NCBI GenBank assembly: GCA_965223545.1
Contig: OZ245006.1
Coordinates: 3,264,001 to 3,328,000, forward strand
DNA from: Planctomycetota bacterium
GTDB lineage: Bacteria > Planctomycetota > UBA1135 > UBA2386
DNA: 64,000 nt
Reading direction: 5' to 3'
Part shown: positions 32,575 through 41,548 of the stretch, one piece after another
Position numbering within the stretch: position 1 is the first letter of the stretch
Layout: every line of letters starts with the position of its first letter
Translations under genes and position numbers: made by a program
Notes under the pieces: model-generated
The model's database searches: none
What the model saw: the letters and a program-made list of their open reading frames with translations, nothing else
Told to the model about the DNA's origin: nothing

Positions 32575-33726
32575 CTACGTGTCACGGGCGAGCTGGCGGG
32601 CGCGCGCCAACATGCGGCGCGTCGCGGCTTCGCCGATCCCCCAGTCGACGACGCGGGCGTCGGCGCCGACCAGGATCGTGGTCGGCAGATAGCGCACGGC
32701 GTAGGCCCGGTGGTTCGCGCTGTCCGCCGCCAGCGCGATCGGGAAGTCGACGTCGTGTTGGGTCAGCACGTCGCGGACCGCAGCGCGCTCCGCGTCGCGC
32801 GCGGCGGCGTCCCGGGCATCGCGGGTCACGCCGACGACCTGCAGAGTGGCGGACGCGTTCTCGCGGTGAAACTCGCGCAGCAGTGGCAGCTCATCGATGC
32901 AGGGCGGACACGTCCGCGACCAGAAGTTGAGCACCGTGATCCGGCCGGCGAACGGCGACGCGCTGCCCTGCAACAGCTCGACGCCCGTGAGCGGCGGCGC
33001 GGCCTTGCCGTGCAGCGCCGCACCGGCCTGCTCGGTGGCCAGTCGTTCCCGATCGGCACATGCACCCAGTGGGAGGAGCACACACAGCACGGCAGCCGCG
33101 CCGAGCGCCGGTCCCGCGCCCCGCCAGAGCGTCAGCAAGCGGATGGTGAACGCCGCGAAGAACACGCCGAACAGCGGCCCCGGATCGATCAACCCCGCGG
33201 TCCCCGGATTGTCGGGAAAGGTCAGCATGTTGAAGGCGAGTCCGCACACGCCGACGACCATCGCACAGGCGCCCCAAAGCGGACCGAAGCGCGGCGCCCG
33301 CCAGAGCACCGTGCCGAGCAGGAACGTCGCGGTGGCCACGAAGAGGTCGAAGGCGATGTCGACGCCGAGCTGCGAGGCGTCCACCAGCCTCAGCACCGCC
33401 CGCGTCGGCTCCGGGTCCAGGCCGGCAGCGCGCAGGTCGGCGAAGCGGGTGCGCAGGGTGGCCTGCATGGTCGCCATCATCGTCACTGCCGCACCGGCCA
33501 GAACCATGAACAACGACGCCATCTGCAGGCGCACACCGTCACAGCCGCGCTGCAGAAACCGGAACAGCCCCAGCCCGGTCGCCGCCAGCAACGGCCCGAA
33601 CGCGAAGAAGAAACCGTAGTTCACCGCGGGCGAGATCGGGACCTGCGTGGCGACGAGGTAGGACACGCAGGCCAGCACGCCGAGGACGGTGGTGACCCGC
33701 AGCCAGCGGGGATCGAATGGGGTCAT
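32575..33726 (-). CDS. membrane protein fused to a TlpA-like thioredoxin domain
   Basis: About 6-7 TM helices, then VLNFWSRTCPPCIDELP and YAVRYLPTTILV. Confidence 0.75.
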   Translation of the reverse strand: MTPFDPRWLRVTTVLGVLACVSYLVATQVPISPAVNYGFFFAFGPLLAATGLGLFRFLQRGCDGVRLQMASLFMVLAGAAVTMMATMQATLRTRFADLRAAGLDPEPTRAVLRLVDASQLGVDIAFDLFVATATFLLGTVLWRAPRFGPLWGACAMVVGVCGLAFNMLTFPDNPGTAGLIDPGPLFGVFFAAFTIRLLTLWRGAGPALGAAAVLCVLLPLGACADRERLATEQAGAALHGKAAPPLTGVELLQGSASPFAGRITVLNFWSRTCPPCIDELPLLREFHRENASATLQVVGVTRDARDAAARDAERAAVRDVLTQHDVDFPIALAADSANHRAYAVRYLPTTILVGADARVVDWGIGEAATRRMLARARQLARDT

Positions 33727-34460
33727 GGTCGGTCTCTCTCTTGCCCGGCGGCGCGCTCGCGTTGGCGCAGCGCATGGATGTCGTGCTGTCGCGCGCGGTA
33801 GAACAGGTAGCGGTGAAACAAGTTGCCGGCGCGCTGGAGCGCCAAGGTCGCGGCGGCGGCGCCATCGACCGGCAGTCCGCCGACGACGCGGTCGCGCAGC
33901 TGCATCTCCAGCCGGCTCGCCTCGCGCAAATGGGTGGCGATCGGCGCCAAGGCGTCGACCGGAACGTCGTGCTCGGCGAAGAGCGCGGCGATGGTCTGCA
34001 GCAGGCGGAGGTCGAGACCGTCGAACGGCGAAGGACCGGCGTCAGGAGGCGGCAGCAGCACCCCGGCTTCGATCAGTCGGGCCAGGAGCTCGGGAGCGAC
34101 CCCGGCAGCGCGCGCCAGGTCCGGCGCGTCGAACGGACCCTCGTCGACTCCCTCGACGTCGCCGGCGACGGCCCGCTGTAGGAGCACGGCGACCTCCGGC
34201 TCGACGCCGCGCTCCACCCATTCGAGCACCCGGCGCACCTGGGGGAGCGGGAGCGCGGGCCCGCCGTCCTGCGGCTCACGCATCTCCTGCAGGAGGGCCA
34301 GGCGCCGGAGGTGGGCCTCGCCGTACAACGCGGCGTTGGGAGCGGTCTTGGTCGGCGGCGGCAGCAGGCCTTCGCGCAGGTAGAAGTGGATCTTGGTGCG
34401 GGGCACGCCACTCCTGGCGACCAGCTCACGCATACGTAGGGCGTCGACCGCTTGGTCCAT
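33723..34460 (-). CDS. MerR-family transcriptional regulator
   Basis: MRELVARSGVPRTKIHFYLREGLLP..ALYGEAH. Confidence 0.85.
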   Translation of the reverse strand: MDQAVDALRMRELVARSGVPRTKIHFYLREGLLPPPTKTAPNAALYGEAHLRRLALLQEMREPQDGGPALPLPQVRRVLEWVERGVEPEVAVLLQRAVAGDVEGVDEGPFDAPDLARAAGVAPELLARLIEAGVLLPPPDAGPSPFDGLDLRLLQTIAALFAEHDVPVDALAPIATHLREASRLEMQLRDRVVGGLPVDGAAAATLALQRAGNLFHRYLFYRARQHDIHALRQRERAAGQERDRP

Positions 34461-34591: not shown

Positions 34592-35176
34592 GTGATCAGC
34601 CACGACTCCGCTCCGCGCGGCGCGCCGACCCCGCCGGCCGACCTCGACAACCTGATCGTCGCGGCCATCCGGCGCCTGATGCGCGCGGTCGACCTGCACT
34701 CGCGGCGCCTCTACGAGGCCTGCGGGCTGACCGGGCCGCAGCTTGCAACCCTGCAGGAAGTCGCGCGTTCCGGCCCTCTACCGGCGAGCACCCTGGCGCG
34801 TGCGGTGCATCTGAGCGGCCCCACGATGACCGGCATCCTGACCCGCCTGGAGCGCCGCGGACACATCCTCCGGGCACGCGGCGATACGGATCGACGCACG
34901 GTTCAGGTGTCCATCACGAAGCTCGGGGCGGCCACGCTGGAACGGGCGCCTTCGCTGCTGCAGGATCGGTTTCGACGCAAGCTGTCGCAGCTGGAACACT
35001 GGGAGCAGCTCATGATGTTGGCCAACCTCCAGCGCATCGCGATGATGATGGATGCGGAGCAGCTGGACGCGGCGCCTCACCTGGTGGCCGATGCGGCGGC
35101 GCTGGACCGCGACGGCAGCGACCCGAGCGGGCCGTTGGCGGGCGGCGCGAAGCCGGGCGGCGCGCCTCCTGGCTGA
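34592..35176 (+). CDS. MarR-family regulator, EctR/CosR-like
   Basis: AIRRLMRAVDLHSRRL..GLTGPQL..TGILTRLERRG..DRR..APSLLQDRF..WEQ. Confidence 0.85.
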   Translation: MISHDSAPRGAPTPPADLDNLIVAAIRRLMRAVDLHSRRLYEACGLTGPQLATLQEVARSGPLPASTLARAVHLSGPTMTGILTRLERRGHILRARGDTDRRTVQVSITKLGAATLERAPSLLQDRFRRKLSQLEHWEQLMMLANLQRIAMMMDAEQLDAAPHLVADAAALDRDGSDPSGPLAGGAKPGGAPPG

Positions 35177-35242
35177 CGCGCGGGACGAGGAAAGGAGGCC
35201 GCGGTCAGAAAATCGGTCAGACTCCATCAAGTCTCGCGATAG

Positions 35243-35256
35243 CTTTGCGTGCAAAG
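35243..35256. promoter_or_regulatory. palindromic candidate MarR operator
   Basis: CTTTGC-GT-GCAAAG inverted repeat, 8 bp upstream of the P-II start, in an AT-richer spacer. Confidence 0.5.
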
Positions 35257-35264
35257 AATCTCGC

Positions 35265-35597
35265 ATGCCTACCAAGAAGATCGAGGCCTACCTGAAGCCT
35301 TTTCGCTTGGCCGAAGTGCGGACGGCACTGGCAGAGGCTGGCTTCGACGTGATCCGCGTGCACGACGCCGAGGAGCTGCGGCCGACGGAGACCTACACCG
35401 AGACGGTCCAGGGGCAGCGCTACGAGATCGACGCGTCGCCGCGGGTGCTGGTCGTGCTCTTGGTGGAGGATCGCGAGCTGGAGCGCGCCGTCCGACTGAT
35501 CCAGTCCGTCGCGCGCACGGACCACCGCGGCGACGGCCGGATCTTGATCTCCGCGGTCGAGCAGCTGGTGCCGGTGGACCCGGACGAAGCGTCGTGA
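35265..35597 (+). CDS. P-II-like signal protein (divergent)
   Basis: KKIEAYLKPFRLAEVRTAL, ARTDHRGDGRILIS. Confidence 0.8.
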   Translation: MPTKKIEAYLKPFRLAEVRTALAEAGFDVIRVHDAEELRPTETYTETVQGQRYEIDASPRVLVVLLVEDRELERAVRLIQSVARTDHRGDGRILISAVEQLVPVDPDEAS

Positions 35598-36067
35598 TGC
35601 GGGCTCATCCGATCGCCGCGGGGCTGCTGCTGGCAGTCGGCCTCGCCGCGCAGGAGCCACGCGAGTTGCCCACGCCGGAATGGGTGCCCCCCCCACCGCT
35701 CGAGGCCGCATCCGCCGACGGTAGCTTCGGCCTCGCATGGCAGCCGATCGAGGCGCCCGCCGGCGGCTCGATCTCCTTCGACCTCGAAGAAACAACGCCG
35801 CAGGGCGAGCGGAACGTGCTGGACGCGGGACCGTTCGCCGGCGCCGCGCTCAGCGGCCGTGAAGACGGCACCTACACCTACCGGGTCCGCGCCCGCGCGG
35901 CCGACGGCGCCACCGGGGACTGGAGCGCGGCGTTTGCGGTTCACGTGCGCCACCACTCCCTGGCGCTCGCCATCGCCCTGTTTGCCATCGGCGCAGTGGT
36001 CTTCGTCGCCACCGCGGTGACCGTGATCGGCGGTGCCCGGCGCGCGTCGGCCGAGGCCAGTCGCTGA
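35597..36067 (+). CDS. exported FN3-like protein with a C-terminal TM anchor
   Basis: Signal peptide, LSGREDGTYTYRVRA..GDWS, C-terminal hydrophobic helix. Confidence 0.65.
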   Translation: MRAHPIAAGLLLAVGLAAQEPRELPTPEWVPPPPLEAASADGSFGLAWQPIEAPAGGSISFDLEETTPQGERNVLDAGPFAGAALSGREDGTYTYRVRARAADGATGDWSAAFAVHVRHHSLALAIALFAIGAVVFVATAVTVIGGARRASAEASR

Positions 36068-36079
36068 CCTGGATCCGCC

Positions 36080-37501
36080 ATGCACCCCACCATCCTCGAC
36101 CCCGGCGTCGCCGGCGCACTGCTCGCCATCTTCAGCGTCGTTTGGGTGTTTCTCGGCTGGTGGTGGGGCCGCAAGGCGTCCGGCCTCGACGACTTCATGC
36201 TGGCCGGTCGCCGGGTGGGCTTGGCGTTGGGCACGGCCACGGCGATGGCCACCTGGGTCACCAGCAACACGACCCTGGTGGCACCACAGCTGGCCTACCA
36301 ACTCGGCATCTGGGGGATGCTCGGCTACTCGCTCGGCTCGATCGGCCTGCTGCTGTTTGCGCCGATGGCGGCGCGCATCCGCGCGCTGATGCCGCGCGGG
36401 TTCACCAGCGGCGACTTCATGCGGCTGCGCTACGGCACGCTGACCTGGCGGGTGTTCCTGGTCGTGTCGCTGGTCTACAGCGCCGGTTGGCTCATCAGCC
36501 TCGGTACCGCTGGCGGGGTGCTGCTCGAGGCCCTCAGCGGGATTCCGTACGAAGTCGGGGCGACCGTCATCCTGACGATCTGCGTGCTTTACACGCTGCT
36601 CGGCGGCCTGCGCGCGGTGATCGGCACGGACTACATCCAGACCGTCGTCATCATCACCGGCCTGGTGGTGATCGGTGCGCTGACGCTGTCGGCCGTCGAC
36701 CTCGAGACCACGCACCGACACCTGGCCGAGGCGCGGCCGCGGCTGCTCGACATGCTGATGCCGGCAGCGGTGATGTTCCTGTTCAACAACCTCCTCTTCG
36801 GCGTCGGCGAGATCTTCCACTCCAACGTCTGGTGGAGCCGCGCGTTCGCCTTCGATCGAGGCGTCGGCTTCCGCGCATATCTGCTGGCAGGCCTGATGTG
36901 GATCCCGATCCCGATCGCCGCCGGCTTCGTCGCGCTTTCGGCCCCGGTTCTCGGCCTGTCGGTACCGCGGGCCGACATGGTCGGCCCCATGGTCGCCGCC
37001 GAAGTCCTCGGTTTCGGCGGTGCCGTGCTGCTGTTCGTCATCGTGTTCTCGGCGATCGCATCCAGCCTGGACTCGCTGCTGGCGGCGACCAGCGATCTGA
37101 TCGTCGAGGATGTCTACCGCAGACATTTGCGCCCGCAGGCAAGCCGCGAGCAGCTGCGACGCGCATCTTCGATCGTCATCCTGCTGCTCGGTGCGGTGAC
37201 TTGGGTCGTCTGCATGCTCGACATCACGACCCTGGCAAAGCTGCTGCACTTCACCGGTGCGCTGGTGGCGAGCACGATCTGGCCGATTGCGGCGGGCCTG
37301 TTCTGGCGGCGCGCCAACCCGACCGCAGCGTGGCTGGCGATGGCCCTGGGTTCGGTCGGCGGGCTGATCGCATACAACGCGATCGGCTTCTACGTCGCCG
37401 CCCTCGTCGGCGCGGCGATCTCGATGGTGATCGTCCTCGCCGGCGCCTGGCTGCGGCCGGCGGAGTTCGATTGGCGCACGCTGCAGGAGGCCGACGCATG
37501 A
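36080..37501 (+). CDS. sodium:solute symporter (SSS) family transporter
   Basis: DFMLAGR, ATWV, YTLLGGLRAVIGTDYIQ, SAIASSLDS; about 13 TM helices. Confidence 0.9.
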   Translation: MHPTILDPGVAGALLAIFSVVWVFLGWWWGRKASGLDDFMLAGRRVGLALGTATAMATWVTSNTTLVAPQLAYQLGIWGMLGYSLGSIGLLLFAPMAARIRALMPRGFTSGDFMRLRYGTLTWRVFLVVSLVYSAGWLISLGTAGGVLLEALSGIPYEVGATVILTICVLYTLLGGLRAVIGTDYIQTVVIITGLVVIGALTLSAVDLETTHRHLAEARPRLLDMLMPAAVMFLFNNLLFGVGEIFHSNVWWSRAFAFDRGVGFRAYLLAGLMWIPIPIAAGFVALSAPVLGLSVPRADMVGPMVAAEVLGFGGAVLLFVIVFSAIASSLDSLLAATSDLIVEDVYRRHLRPQASREQLRRASSIVILLLGAVTWVVCMLDITTLAKLLHFTGALVASTIWPIAAGLFWRRANPTAAWLAMALGSVGGLIAYNAIGFYVAALVGAAISMVIVLAGAWLRPAEFDWRTLQEADA

Positions 37502-37620
37502 CACTCCCTCTGGTCGTTCTCGAAGTGCTCGTCTACGCAGCACTCGTGACCAGCGCCGTGACGCCGGTCGCCCTCGTCTGGCTGCTGGTTCGCGACTGGA
37601 GATCGGGCAAGCTGTGGTGA
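37498..37620 (+). CDS. 40-aa small membrane protein
   Basis: MTLPLVVLEVLVYAALVTSAVTPVALVWLLVRDWRSGKLW; ATGA-coupled to the SSS gene and overlapping the next start. Confidence 0.65.
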   Translation: MTLPLVVLEVLVYAALVTSAVTPVALVWLLVRDWRSGKLW

Positions 37621-38696
37621 AAGCGCTGCAGCTCCTGCCCCGACTGCGCGAACCGGTGCAGGGGCGCACCCGCCACGTCGGCATCGAGCACCCACTCCGC
37701 CTGCTCGAGGCCGTACCGGAGGACCCACAGACCCTGTTGCGGCTCGGCAGCCGACACGTGGTGTCGTCGCTGCAGTTCGATCGCGAGGTCGTTCTGCAGC
37801 TGTGCCGGCTGGCCGCCGCCATCGAGAGCCAGCCCGCCCTCCGCCACTTGCCGCTCACCGGCAAGATCCTGATCACTGCGTTCTACGAGCCGAGCACCAG
37901 GACGCGCCTGTCCTTCGAGAGCGCGTGGCACCGGCTCGGCGGCGACATCTTGTCGATCACCGATCCCGAGACCACCGGGATCGCCAAGGGGGAGAGCCTG
38001 GCCGACGTCGCCGAGATGTTCAGCAACTACGGCGACGCGGTAGTCCTGCGCGACCGCAACGAAGACTCGGTGTTCGAGATGATCGACACGCTGCGCGTGC
38101 CGATCATCAACGCCGGCAACGGGATCGACGAGCATCCCACGCAAGCCCTCGCCGACCTCTACACCGTGTTCAAGTGGCGGCCCGAGCTGACGGGGCCCAA
38201 CGTCACCGAGCGCGTGCGTTTCGGCGTGATCGGCAACCCGCGCAAGATGCGCACCGTGCGCAGCCTGCTGCGCCTCCTGTGCCTCTTCTCCTCCGTGATC
38301 GAAGAGGTCGTCATCGTCAATCCCGAGACCGATCTGTTCGACGATGGCGAGCGCGAGCGACTCGAGGACTCCGGGCTGCGCATCGGCACCGAACGCCGCC
38401 TGGGAGCGGCCCTGCGCGAGCTCGACGTGATCTACATCAACTCGATCGCCTGGATCGGCGATACCTTCGAGCGGCTGACCGGCGATCTGCGGCTGACGGC
38501 GCGCTCCTCGTTCAAGCCCGGCGCGATCGTGCTCCACCCCCTCGCCCGCGGCGAGGAGCTGGCCGTCAGCCTGGATGACACCCCCCACAACTGGTACTTC
38601 AGCCAAGCGCGCGGCGCGACCTTCTTGCGAATGGCATTGCTGACCAGCATGGTCGAGCGCGTGCACCGGGTCGCCGACGTCCGCCCGCCTCGTTGA
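37614..38696 (+). CDS. aspartate carbamoyltransferase-like transcarbamylase, probably with altered substrate
   Basis: FYEPSTRTRLSF, KGESL, HPTQALADL, HPLAR; lacks the RxQxER motif. Confidence 0.85.
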   Translation: MVKALQLLPRLREPVQGRTRHVGIEHPLRLLEAVPEDPQTLLRLGSRHVVSSLQFDREVVLQLCRLAAAIESQPALRHLPLTGKILITAFYEPSTRTRLSFESAWHRLGGDILSITDPETTGIAKGESLADVAEMFSNYGDAVVLRDRNEDSVFEMIDTLRVPIINAGNGIDEHPTQALADLYTVFKWRPELTGPNVTERVRFGVIGNPRKMRTVRSLLRLLCLFSSVIEEVVIVNPETDLFDDGERERLEDSGLRIGTERRLGAALRELDVIYINSIAWIGDTFERLTGDLRLTARSSFKPGAIVLHPLARGEELAVSLDDTPHNWYFSQARGATFLRMALLTSMVERVHRVADVRPPR

Positions 38697-38730
38697 CGCA
38701 CTTGACCCCAACACGACAAGGACACGACCC

Positions 38731-40788
38731 ATGTGCGGAATCGCCGGTGTGCTCCACCGCGACCCCGAGCGCCGCGTAGACCGCGGCACCTTGGCGGCAA
38801 TGGCCGCGATCCAGCAGCACCGCGGACCGGACGGCTGCGGCTGGCACGCCATCGACGACCGCGGTGTGGGGTTCGCACACGCCCGATTGGCGATCATCGA
38901 TCTCAACGACAGCGGGCGCCAGCCGCTCCTCGACGGCGGTGGCCGGTGGATGTTGACGCACAACGGTGAGTTCTACGACTACGCACGCATCCGGGCCGAC
39001 CTGACGACGCGCGGCGCGCGGTTCACCACGAAGAGCGATTCGGAGATCGTGCCCCATCTCGTCGCGCACTACGGACTGGACGGCGCGCTGCCTCATCTGC
39101 GCGGTGAGTTCGCGTTCGCGTTCTACGACCGCGAGACCGACGAGCTGGCGCTGGTGCGCGACCGGTTCGGGATCAAGCCGCTCTACTGGACCATGACCGC
39201 GGACACCGTGGTGTTCGGCTCGGAGATCAAGGTCCTGTTCGCCCATCCCGAAGTGCCGCGCGCGTTTGCCGACGAGGGGCTGTTCCACCAGCTCATGCAG
39301 GCGATCACGCCGGGCAGCACGCCGTATCGCGATGTGCACCAAGTGGCGCCGGGCCACGTCGTCCGCATCCGCCGCCGGGGCGGCGGCTTCGAGGTCCGCG
39401 AGCACGCTTACTGGGACATGCCGTTCCCGGTGTGGAACGAGCGGCGGCCGGACGCCGCCGAGGACGAGGTCGTCGAACAGGTCCGCGCCCGGCTGCTGGA
39501 GGCCGTGCAGCTACGACTGGTGGCGGACGTCCCGGTCGGCTGCTACCTCTCCGGCGGCATCGACTCCTGCTCGATGTTGGGGCTCGCCGCCGCCTGCCGC
39601 CAGGATCCGGTCAAGGCCTTCACTATCGGCTTCGACAACCGAGACTACGACGAAACCGAGATCGCCAAGTCGATGGCGCACTCGGTGGGCGCCGATCAGG
39701 ACGTGCTGCCAGTAGGGGCGGCCGAGTTGTACGACCACTTCGTCGAGACCCACTGGCACACCGAGCGCACGATCTACAACACGCTGGGCGTCGCCAAGCT
39801 GCTGATGAGCCGCCATGTGCGCAACGCCGGCTACAAAGTGGTGATTACCGGCGAGGGCTCGGACGAGCTGTTTGCCGGCTACCCGAGCTTTCGCGCCGAT
39901 TTGTTCCGCCATGGTCTCGAGCACCTGCCGGCCGCCGAGCGCGTCGGCATGGAGCAAGCGCTGCAGGAATCCAACGCGGTCTTCAAAGGCGCGATGCTGC
40001 CGTCGCAGGCCTACGACGACCCCGCGCTCACCGCGCTGTGCGGCTTCACCCCGACCTGTCTGCAGCCCTGGCTCGACGCGTCGCGCCGGGTACTGCCGCT
40101 GATCGCCGGCGACCGCCGCACCGCGCTGGCCGACTACCGCCCGGGCGAAGCGATCGCCAACGCGCTCGACGCGAGCGCCATTCGCGGGCGCCACCCGCTC
40201 GACATTGCCCAGTACGTCTGGGTCAAGACGATGCTCGAAGGGCAGATCCTGACCTGGGGCGGCGATCGCGTCGACATGGCGAACTCGATGGAGGCCCGGC
40301 CGGCGTTCCTCGACCATCATCTCGCCGAGTACGCAGCCGGCATCCCGCCGCACCTCCGCATCCGAGCGCGCACTGAGAAGTACGTGCTGCGCGAAGCGAT
40401 GAAAGGCGTCTTGCCGCGCGAGCTGTACGAGCGCGAGAAGTTCGCGTTCATGGCACCACCGGCGCACACCGACCCGCGCAAACAGGCGGCCCTGCGGGCA
40501 CTGACCGACCGCTACTTGTCGGCGGCGGCGATCGAGCCCGCGGGTCTGCTGGACGCGGACGCGGTGCGCGCGCTGCTCCGGCTGCAGGACAGCGGCGACT
40601 TGCCACGGGCGGAGATGGTCCAGCTCGACGCGGTCGTCAACCACTTGCTCGGTGTGCAAGTGCTGCACGAACAGCTCTTGGCGCACGACATCCCGGCGAC
40701 CGCCGCGCGCTTGGCCGCACCGCTGCTGGCCGACACACCGCCACAACCGTCGCCGGCGGATGGCGGCTTCACCAACCCCTCGCCGTGA
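38731..40788 (+). CDS. asnB: asparagine synthase-family glutamine amidotransferase
   Basis: MCGIAG N-terminal Cys, [33 protein letters not shown]. Confidence 0.9.
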
Positions 40789-41548
40789 AGCCACCGTCGA
40801 CCGCGAGCGATTGGCCGGTGACGTAGCTCGCGTCCGCACTCAGCAGGAACGCGATCACGCGCGCCACTTCTTCCGGCTGGCCGACCCTGCCCAGCGGGGT
40901 GTGCTCGCGGATTCGCTCGGCGGTCCCCGGCCGCTGCAGGACCGGCTGCACCAGCGGTGTGTCGATGTACCAGGGCGCGACCGCGTTGACGCGGATGCCA
41001 TCGGCGCCCCATTCGCTGGCGAGGCCGCGCGCCATCGCATCGATCGCCGCCTTGGTCGCGGCGTACGGAACACCCGAGCCGACCGAGACCGTGCCGGCAA
41101 CCGAGCCGACCAGGACCACGCTGGCCGCATCCGAGGCCCGCAGCCATGGATGCGCGCGGCGCGTCAGCTCGAAGGCGGAGTCGACGTTGGTGGCGAACAG
41201 GTGCGCAACCTCTTCGCGCGCATAGTCGACCGCCGGGCGGCGGATATTGGTGCCGACGTTGGCCACGATGAGATCGAGCCCGCCCCACCTCTCGCCGACC
41301 GAGGCGAGGATGGCAGTCAGACCGACTTCGGTCGAGGCGTCGGCCGCGACGCCGGTGACCGCCACGAGCCCGCGGCGCCGCCAGTCCGCGACCGCAGTCT
41401 CGACGCCATCGGCACTCCGAGCGACGATCGCGACCTCGGCACCCGCCCCCAGCAACTGCTCGGCGGTGGCACGGCCGATGCCCTGGGTCGCCCCGGTGAT
41501 CAAGGCTCTGCGGCCGGCGAGAGAGGGAAACGCGACGGTGTCGGGCAT
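40769..41548 (-). CDS. SDR oxidoreductase (tropinone reductase-like)
   Basis: [30 protein letters not shown]. Confidence 0.9.

Follow-up and report, generated by a model that had tools for sequence, protein, structure and literature searches.

A seven-gene run in a Planctomycetota genome with a candidate pathway for the compatible solute N-carbamoyl-glutamine amide

The window analyzed here is a 64,000-nt stretch of a Planctomycetota bacterium genome (assembly GCA_965223545.1, contig OZ245006.1, positions 3,264,001 to 3,328,000 of the forward strand), and within it lies a run of seven adjacent genes that most likely serve the synthesis and re-import of a small nitrogen-rich salt-protective molecule, probably N-carbamoyl-glutamine amide (CGA) by our prediction (Table 1). 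All seven open reading frames are present in one orientation, separated in gene order by 88, -1, 12, -4, -7 and 34 nt, as an earlier sequence-only reading of the window had described, and the flanks hold a divergent MerR-family regulator on the left and a convergent short-chain dehydrogenase/reductase (SDR) on the right, which bears out its remark that no other pyr genes accompany the run. The second GTG, at 37617, is a possible alternative start for the transcarbamylase gene. The GC content of the run agrees with that of the window; a promoter scan of the locus showed no sigma-70 site or clear operator, and nothing above chance came from scanning for promoters, terminators and repeats.

Table 1. 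The seven genes of the run, with positions in the window and the basis of each assignment
Product	Position	Strand	Basis
MarR regulator, EctR/CosR type (by homology)	34592..35176	+	Pfam MarR
Degenerate P-II-like protein	35265..35597	+	Pfam P-II, 34.9 bits
Exported Ig/FN3-like protein, C-terminal membrane anchor	35597..36067	+	Sequence; Ig-like look-alikes
Sodium/solute symporter (SSS) family, Na+-type, DUR3-related	36080..37501	+	Pfam SSF
40-amino-acid single-pass membrane peptide	37498..37620	+	Conserved after symporter; no family match
Pseudo-aspartate transcarbamylase	37614..38696	+	Pfam OTCace_N/OTCace
AsnB-family glutamine-dependent amidotransferase	38731..40788	+	Pfam Asn_synthase/GATase; TIGR01536

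The pseudo-aspartate transcarbamylase (pseudo-ATCase) scores under both pyrB cut-offs (190 against 237 for TIGR00670, and 178 against 263 for PRK00856). Across 224 homologues the carbamoyl-phosphate motifs S[TR]RT and HP[ST]Q are invariant, as are, in an alignment to solved ATCases, the equivalents of K84, R105 and R167. The aspartate side-chain motif R229-x-Q231 is lost in all 224 and replaced by [SA]-I-A, next to which stand a near-invariant Asn and an invariant Trp; HPLP has become HPLA, outside the HP[LG]P pattern of PyrB. The low scores and the loss of R-x-Q uphold the view of the sequence-only reading that this enzyme differs from a normal ATCase. In ATCase we take R167 to hold the alpha-carboxylate, and R229 and Q231 to hold the beta-carboxylate; retention of the first together with loss of the others therefore points to an amino acid whose alpha-carboxylate is free and whose side chain is not that of aspartate, and a free alpha-carboxylate in the substrate would in turn mean that carbamoylation precedes amidation. 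We propose that the window enzyme is an N-carbamoyltransferase for a non-aspartate amino acid, with glutamine or glutamate as the candidate. An AlphaFold model searched with Foldseek confirmed the ATCase fold, and because model confidence (pLDDT) falls below 50 at residues 279-283 and 312-323, in loops beside the specificity motifs, no substrate can be read from the model. The source genome separately encodes CarB and a canonical PyrB with R-x-Q; this pyrB (G000:C1:390139-391128) is prolonged at its C-terminal end by a stretch bearing a C-x4-C motif, which we take to be possibly a fused regulatory domain.

The closest relatives are from Planctomycetota (73-75%), and in a tree the window transcarbamylase groups with three Planctomycetota proteins (support 100/98; the tree contains two faulty rows, one out of frame and one not a transcarbamylase, and its root and outgroups were not used). 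The gene occurs in 2 of the 151 genomes searched of the source genome's order, the source genome counted, and is therefore patchy there; no plasmid copy was found at E 1e-40. At one further locus (L102, G015:C1:1194650-1195710) the transcarbamylase is split over two frames, either by assembly error or as a pseudogene.

The amidotransferase passes TIGR01536 (414.8 bits) and falls under both the AsnO and the AsnB cut-offs, with a score of 281 against 570.1 for AsnO (TIGR03104). Thirteen positions that we take to be catalytic by E. coli numbering are conserved in 65-66 of 66 sequences, comprising the N-terminal Cys nucleophile, the glutaminase residues, the SGG.DS loop and the synthetase Glu, Asp and Lys, and their conservation marks the partner of the transcarbamylase as a synthetase, not an asparaginase. 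It is proposed to amidate the alpha-carboxylate of the carbamoylated amino acid.

This gene lies directly after the transcarbamylase gene in 88 of the 92 loci that hold both (three more loci are short contigs without it), and the 40-amino-acid peptide follows the symporter in all 72 loci examined, so the run is not a product of chance. Among the 62 well-flanked loci of 95, the amidotransferase is present in 62, an M20 carbamoylase in 57, the symporter in 49, an isochorismatase-family hydrolase in 43, the Ig-like protein in 39, MarR in 33 and P-II in 6, counts from a locus set that is biased to Thioalkalivibrio and Synechococcus and whose members are not independent. The window run has neither of the usual hydrolases (carbamoylase and amidase), and the best carbamoylase match in the source genome (29%) lies 0.8 Mb away. 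When the linked hydrolase was compared with ErtE, an N-carbamyl-L-glutamate amidohydrolase, the match came first or second in three of four scans and third in the other, always below cut-off.

Variants of the block occur as well. Three loci of the genus Nitrosomonas (L109-L111) carry a divergent sister form (44-46% identity) that keeps the Ig-like protein, symporter, transcarbamylase and amidotransferase and, like the window, has no hydrolases. In this genus 2 of 121 genomes have a close orthologue, both with ectC, and 4 have a divergent copy, all without ectC, although these are few and related genomes. In another locus (L012) the order is rearranged, with the symporter module and amidotransferase divergent from the transcarbamylase and carbamoylase. 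The flanks of the window run comprise, on the left (32575-34460, minus strand), the divergent MerR-family regulator and, after it, a membrane protein that carries a fused TlpA/ResA-like thioredoxin domain, neither of them conserved with the cluster, and, on the right (40769-41548, minus strand), the SDR gene, whose 3′ end runs 20 nt into the amidotransferase gene, with no terminator found between the two.

The best solved relative of the symporter is the urea transporter DUR3 (E 6.5e-35), whose urea pocket comprises W95, Y117, Y315, W338 and Y461 and whose proton sites are D312, E402 and H222 (PMC11840088; statements on cited papers refer, here and below, to excerpts of those papers). Across 63 symporter sequences W93, T98, Y117, W338 and P474 of DUR3 are retained throughout, and the pocket changes at W95 (to T), Y315 (to W), Y461 (to L), Q124 (to G) and N305 (to G or S), the replacements at W95, Q124, N305 and Y461 being smaller residues. 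The proton sites are lost (D312 to S or N, E402 to L, H222 to Q), and instead there is an A/S-x-x-S-S/T site, which we take to be the Na2 motif. These changes suggest a Na+-coupled carrier whose apparently widened pocket would accept a ureido compound bigger than urea itself. The 40-amino-acid peptide has no family match and is probably a small partner of the symporter. The protein encoded by the third gene, labeled an FN3 membrane protein in the sequence-only reading, does have a membrane anchor and Ig-like look-alikes (0.82-0.83 in Atlas, and no others), but the label finds no Pfam or NCBIfam match. Peptide and Ig-like protein are both missing from all 13 well-flanked loci that lack the symporter, and we infer that the Ig/FN3-like protein is a symporter accessory.

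The window MarR matched 54 plasmid records, and among the 15 matches listed (38-42% identity) the four inspected all adjoin ectoine or betaine genes, three being divergent from ectABC-ask and one downstream of ectAB-proVWX, which we take to be the EctR and CosR arrangements. Ectoine operons thus hold the closest annotated relatives of the window MarR among the matches inspected, in agreement with the EctR/CosR type invoked in the sequence-only reading, and homology suggests the same type for the window protein, which is 44-53% identical to the MarRs of other cluster copies. The window operon differs in that it lacks ectoine genes; no ectC was found in the source genome by a search that matched 11 of 121 Nitrosomonas-genus genomes, and the ectoine loci of Nitrosomonas contain no EctR to compare with the window MarR. 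Judged by eye, two ectoine clusters (L119 and L120) have a MerR-like regulator in front instead of EctR and an SSS-like symporter after them. Elsewhere in the source genome (L123, G000:C1:1785450-1790000) a broken MarR remnant, 57% identical to the window MarR over 58 amino acids, stands directly before a double methyltransferase (histidine-specific Methyltransf_33 domain), an ATP-binding cassette ATPase and an OpuAC-permease fusion.

The P-II-like gene is present in 9 of the first 80 loci, and its product falls far under the NCBIfam cut-offs. Compared with solved P-II proteins it has lost the G37-R38-Q39 stretch, K58 and R101/R103, presumably the ATP/2-oxoglutarate residues of P-II, and has kept Y51, so that it lacks the canonical GlnB/GlnK residue set. 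In the source genome, which is 91% complete, no canonical GlnB/GlnK was found; the P-II matches there are two in number and both weak (40.5 and 33 bits).

Ectothiorhodospira marismortui, for which the name E. mobilis is also in use, has CGA as a solute (Roberts 2005, PMC1224877), and NCBI taxonomy places the former name under the latter. Orthologues are named from E. mobilis, E. magna, E. marina, E. shaposhnikovii, E. lacustris, Ectothiorhodosinus mongolicus and Thiorhodospira sibirica, and the three that carry the name E. mobilis are 61% identical to the window transcarbamylase. Two of these three are matched exactly by proteins encoded in two genomes (loci L098 and L099), where the order is MarR, carbamoylase, amidase, transcarbamylase and amidotransferase and where sucrose synthase and a PfkB kinase border the cluster, one at each end; the search in Ectothiorhodospira suggested by the sequence-only reading has thus located the cluster in two E. 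mobilis-named genomes, a match at species level only. The transport module has been lost from the cluster at both loci. The OTCace_N genes number three in each genome, and a NodU-type carbamoyltransferase was found in neither. In one of them (G011) the other two OTCace_N genes are argF and a pyrB with R-x-Q, which, to the extent that draft genomes reveal, leaves the cluster enzyme as the one spare N-carbamoyltransferase. Among the other orthologue-bearing species, magna, mongolicus and sibirica are described as being without betaine and ectoine synthesis, with CGA named among the candidate solutes (Imhoff 2020, PMC7824335).

As the sequence-only reading suspected of the pairing of asnB with a second pyrB, the gene block is not new, having been published twice with other readings. 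A marine pseudo-ATCase subgroup from Rhodopirellula baltica (RB13301), Nitrosococcus oceani, Synechococcus WH8102 and Kangiella was described by Barba 2013 (PMC4016543), where the partner was read as a putative asparaginase and where the excerpts on the subgroup give no function or test. With its motifs STRT, HPTQ, HPLA and SIA the window enzyme matches the set in Table 1 of that paper (AIA, AIS or SIA in the subgroup) and is a member, and in both cases the transcarbamylase lies between a Na+ symporter and an asparagine-related gene. The window copy differs in adding MarR and the P-II-like gene, in having a synthetase-type amidotransferase as the partner, and in lacking the N-carbamoyl-amino-acid hydrolase that is adjacent in nearly all cases in the subgroup. 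The pyrB2-asnB-pydC block of marine picocyanobacteria (Dore 2023, PMC10119275) is orthologous and in the same order, with transcarbamylases 58-64% identical; it was read there as an alternative pyrimidine pathway, whereas the residue data argue against aspartate as the substrate. No paper assigning genes to CGA was found in the literature searched, a search that left most subscription journals and theses outside, so a printed assignment may exist; the link between CGA and genes would be the new element here.

The closest parallel in logic is the asnO-ngg system for N-acetylglutaminylglutamine amide (NAGGN; MarR PA3458, peptidase PA3461), in which Ngg caps glutamine, AsnO amidates the N-acylated glutamine and MarR represses (PMC8070244), and which likewise combines an alpha-amino cap, AsnB-family amidation, a MarR and a linked hydrolase. 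The cap is added there by the GNAT acetyltransferase/ligase Ngg, whereas the cap enzyme of the window is a transcarbamylase, and the window cluster adds a DUR3-like symporter. No Ngg GNAT/ligase was found among the seven genes or the recurrent neighbors, and the amidotransferase lies under the AsnO cut-off, so the window system is not a NAGGN member.

Published expression data on orthologues bear on a link to salt. In Synechococcus WH8102, 102 genes changed at a 1% false discovery rate, 82 of them upward, 2 h after addition of 0.125 M NaCl (Mao 2010, PMC2874817), and the enzyme genes SYNW2454 (+0.78 log2) and SYNW2453 (+0.62), assigned by annotation and adjacency, not by sequence, ranked fourth and sixth of the 82, both above ggpS (+0.43), with the betaine methyltransferases at +0.87; the carbamoylase and symporter genes are not in the list of salt-changed genes. 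For Synechococcus RS9907 we normalized raw counts (PMC12834511) on 18 housekeeping genes, a crude treatment of 3-4 replicates in which pyrB2 tracks ggpS (rho 0.70) and the symporter gene roughly doubles from 18 to 50 practical salinity units (PSU). Carbamoylase transcripts vary with those of the nitrate transporter (rho 0.70, 20 samples), not with salt, and are up about 20-fold in two samples with a nitrogen-gene peak. In the authors' own clustering, pyrB2 and the symporter each join ggpS with a probability of 0.50. The RS9907 pattern, in which the salt effect is small, is compatible with a solute that is made in salt or cold and degraded when nitrogen is short.

We consider it fairly probable that the run converts glutamine or glutamate and carbamoyl phosphate, through an N-carbamoyl amino acid, to CGA, that the symporter module takes the solute up again, and that the EctR/CosR-type MarR controls the genes. 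The pseudo-ATCase would move the carbamoyl group from carbamoyl phosphate, supplied by CarAB encoded elsewhere in the genome, onto glutamine (or glutamate) at its alpha-amino group. The amidotransferase, with ATP and glutamine, would then amidate the alpha-carboxylate, acting twice if glutamate is the start, and the Na+-coupled DUR3-like symporter and its two small partners would re-import the ureido solute. By homology the MarR would link transcription to salt or ionic strength, and the P-II-like protein may, more speculatively, couple the four-nitrogen product to nitrogen status. The carbamoylase and amidase of most relatives, absent from the window copy, would recycle the solute. We regard the two-enzyme pathway as real, conserved and mis-annotated, with CGA as a strong candidate for its product.

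Several observations weigh against this assignment. The transcarbamylase is found in 49 of 55 genomes searched of the order that holds Ectothiorhodospira and Thioalkalivibrio, yet CGA is said to occur in one organism only and as a minor solute (PMC3857566). The match to the producer is at the level of the species, not of the 1991 strain; moreover, each E. mobilis-named genome has five strong Asn_synthase matches, so the argument by elimination covers the transcarbamylase only, and for the MarR of one of these two loci (L099) no plasmid relative was found. R. baltica carries the transcarbamylase gene RB13301 (Barba 2013, PMC4016543), and in the excerpts of a nuclear magnetic resonance (NMR) study over 50-260% seawater the only solutes reported are sucrose, glutamate, trehalose and mannosylglucosylglycerate (PMC3694870); RB13301 is also absent from the differentially expressed lists consulted for the R. 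baltica salt-shock array (PMC2754498), whose salt-induced sheet does include RB13300 and RB13294, two genes that could not be mapped to the operon and are not counted. We assume that a minor CGA pool could have escaped detection in this species. In WH8102 the nitrate transporter (+0.89) and nitrite reductase (+0.59) rose as well (PMC2874817). In RS9907 pyrB2 increased about 1.5-fold (28 C) and about 3-fold (20 C) from 18 to 50 PSU, against 6-7-fold for ggpS, while asnB was flat at 28 C and had its maximum at 36 PSU and 20 C, and the authors put asnB and the carbamoylase in a nitrogen-assimilation gene cluster (PMC12834511). The salt link drawn in the sequence-only reading is thus supported by the WH8102 enzyme genes and weakened by the small RS9907 induction and the concurrent rise of nitrogen genes; its interpretation as a whole gains from the unusual ATCase, the E. 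mobilis-named cluster, the MarR type and the salt response of orthologues, and loses from the R. baltica NMR data.

Among the alternatives, the one that survives best keeps the same chemistry with another skeleton or role, namely an N-carbamoyl amino-acid amide other than CGA (made, for example, from asparagine), or chiefly a soluble nitrogen store used in nitrogen shortage. The residue changes rule out aspartate without naming the substrate, the RS9907 carbamoylase follows the nitrate transporter, the window copy contains a P-II-like gene, the cluster is found in warm, N- and P-depleted waters (Dore 2023, PMC10119275), and no CGA is reported from R. baltica in the excerpts (PMC3694870). We nevertheless hold this alternative to be rather unlikely in view of the EctR/CosR-type MarR, the salt-shock induction alongside betaine methyltransferases (PMC2874817) and the status of the enzyme as the only spare transcarbamylase in the producer's species. 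Nitrogen storage and osmoprotection are not mutually exclusive.

Catabolic use of ureides, with the symporter importing a ureido compound and the pseudo-ATCase running phosphorolytically, is considerably less probable. The precedent is Rxyl_2847, a ureidoglycine carbamoyltransferase that, like the window enzyme, is a pseudo-ATCase with a non-aspartate substrate, in its case tested experimentally, and that is catabolic (Barba 2013, PMC4016543); a DUR3-like symporter and a carbamoylase in 57 of the 62 well-flanked loci would also suit such a role. Rxyl_2847, however, has other C-terminal motifs and adjoins carbamate kinase and allantoinase, which are not recurrent neighbors of window-type loci, and carbamate kinase exceeded its cut-off in none of five genomes tested (G001 alone has a near match, on another contig). 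The fixed partner is instead an ATP-consuming amidotransferase with all its catalytic residues, absent from none of the 62 loci, whereas the symporter is absent from 13; the window copy has no hydrolase, and urease was not found in the source genome (91% complete). Alternative pyrimidine biosynthesis or recycling, although suggested in print for pyrB2-asnB-pydC (Dore 2023, PMC10119275) and in keeping with the ATCase fold and databank annotation, is highly improbable given the loss of the aspartate side-chain motif in all 224 homologues, the scores under both pyrB cut-offs, the canonical pyrB in the source genome and in G011, and the lack of dihydroorotase among recurrent neighbors.

CGA was reportedly first described in 1991 as a compatible solute. 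If the CGA assignment holds, genes would be assigned to a solute known since then, a new transcarbamylase specificity would be defined, and the common annotation as "aspartate carbamoyltransferase / asparagine synthase" would be corrected; it would also point to a four-nitrogen metabolite in abundant marine cyanobacteria and nitrifiers. More tentatively still, CGA may be a widespread, overlooked marine solute and nitrogen reserve, made by a pair of glutamine/glutamate N-carbamoyltransferase and amide synthetase in warm-water Synechococcus, nitrifiers and sulfur oxidizers, traded via the DUR3-like Na+ symporter, accumulated in salt or cold and drawn on when nitrogen is short.

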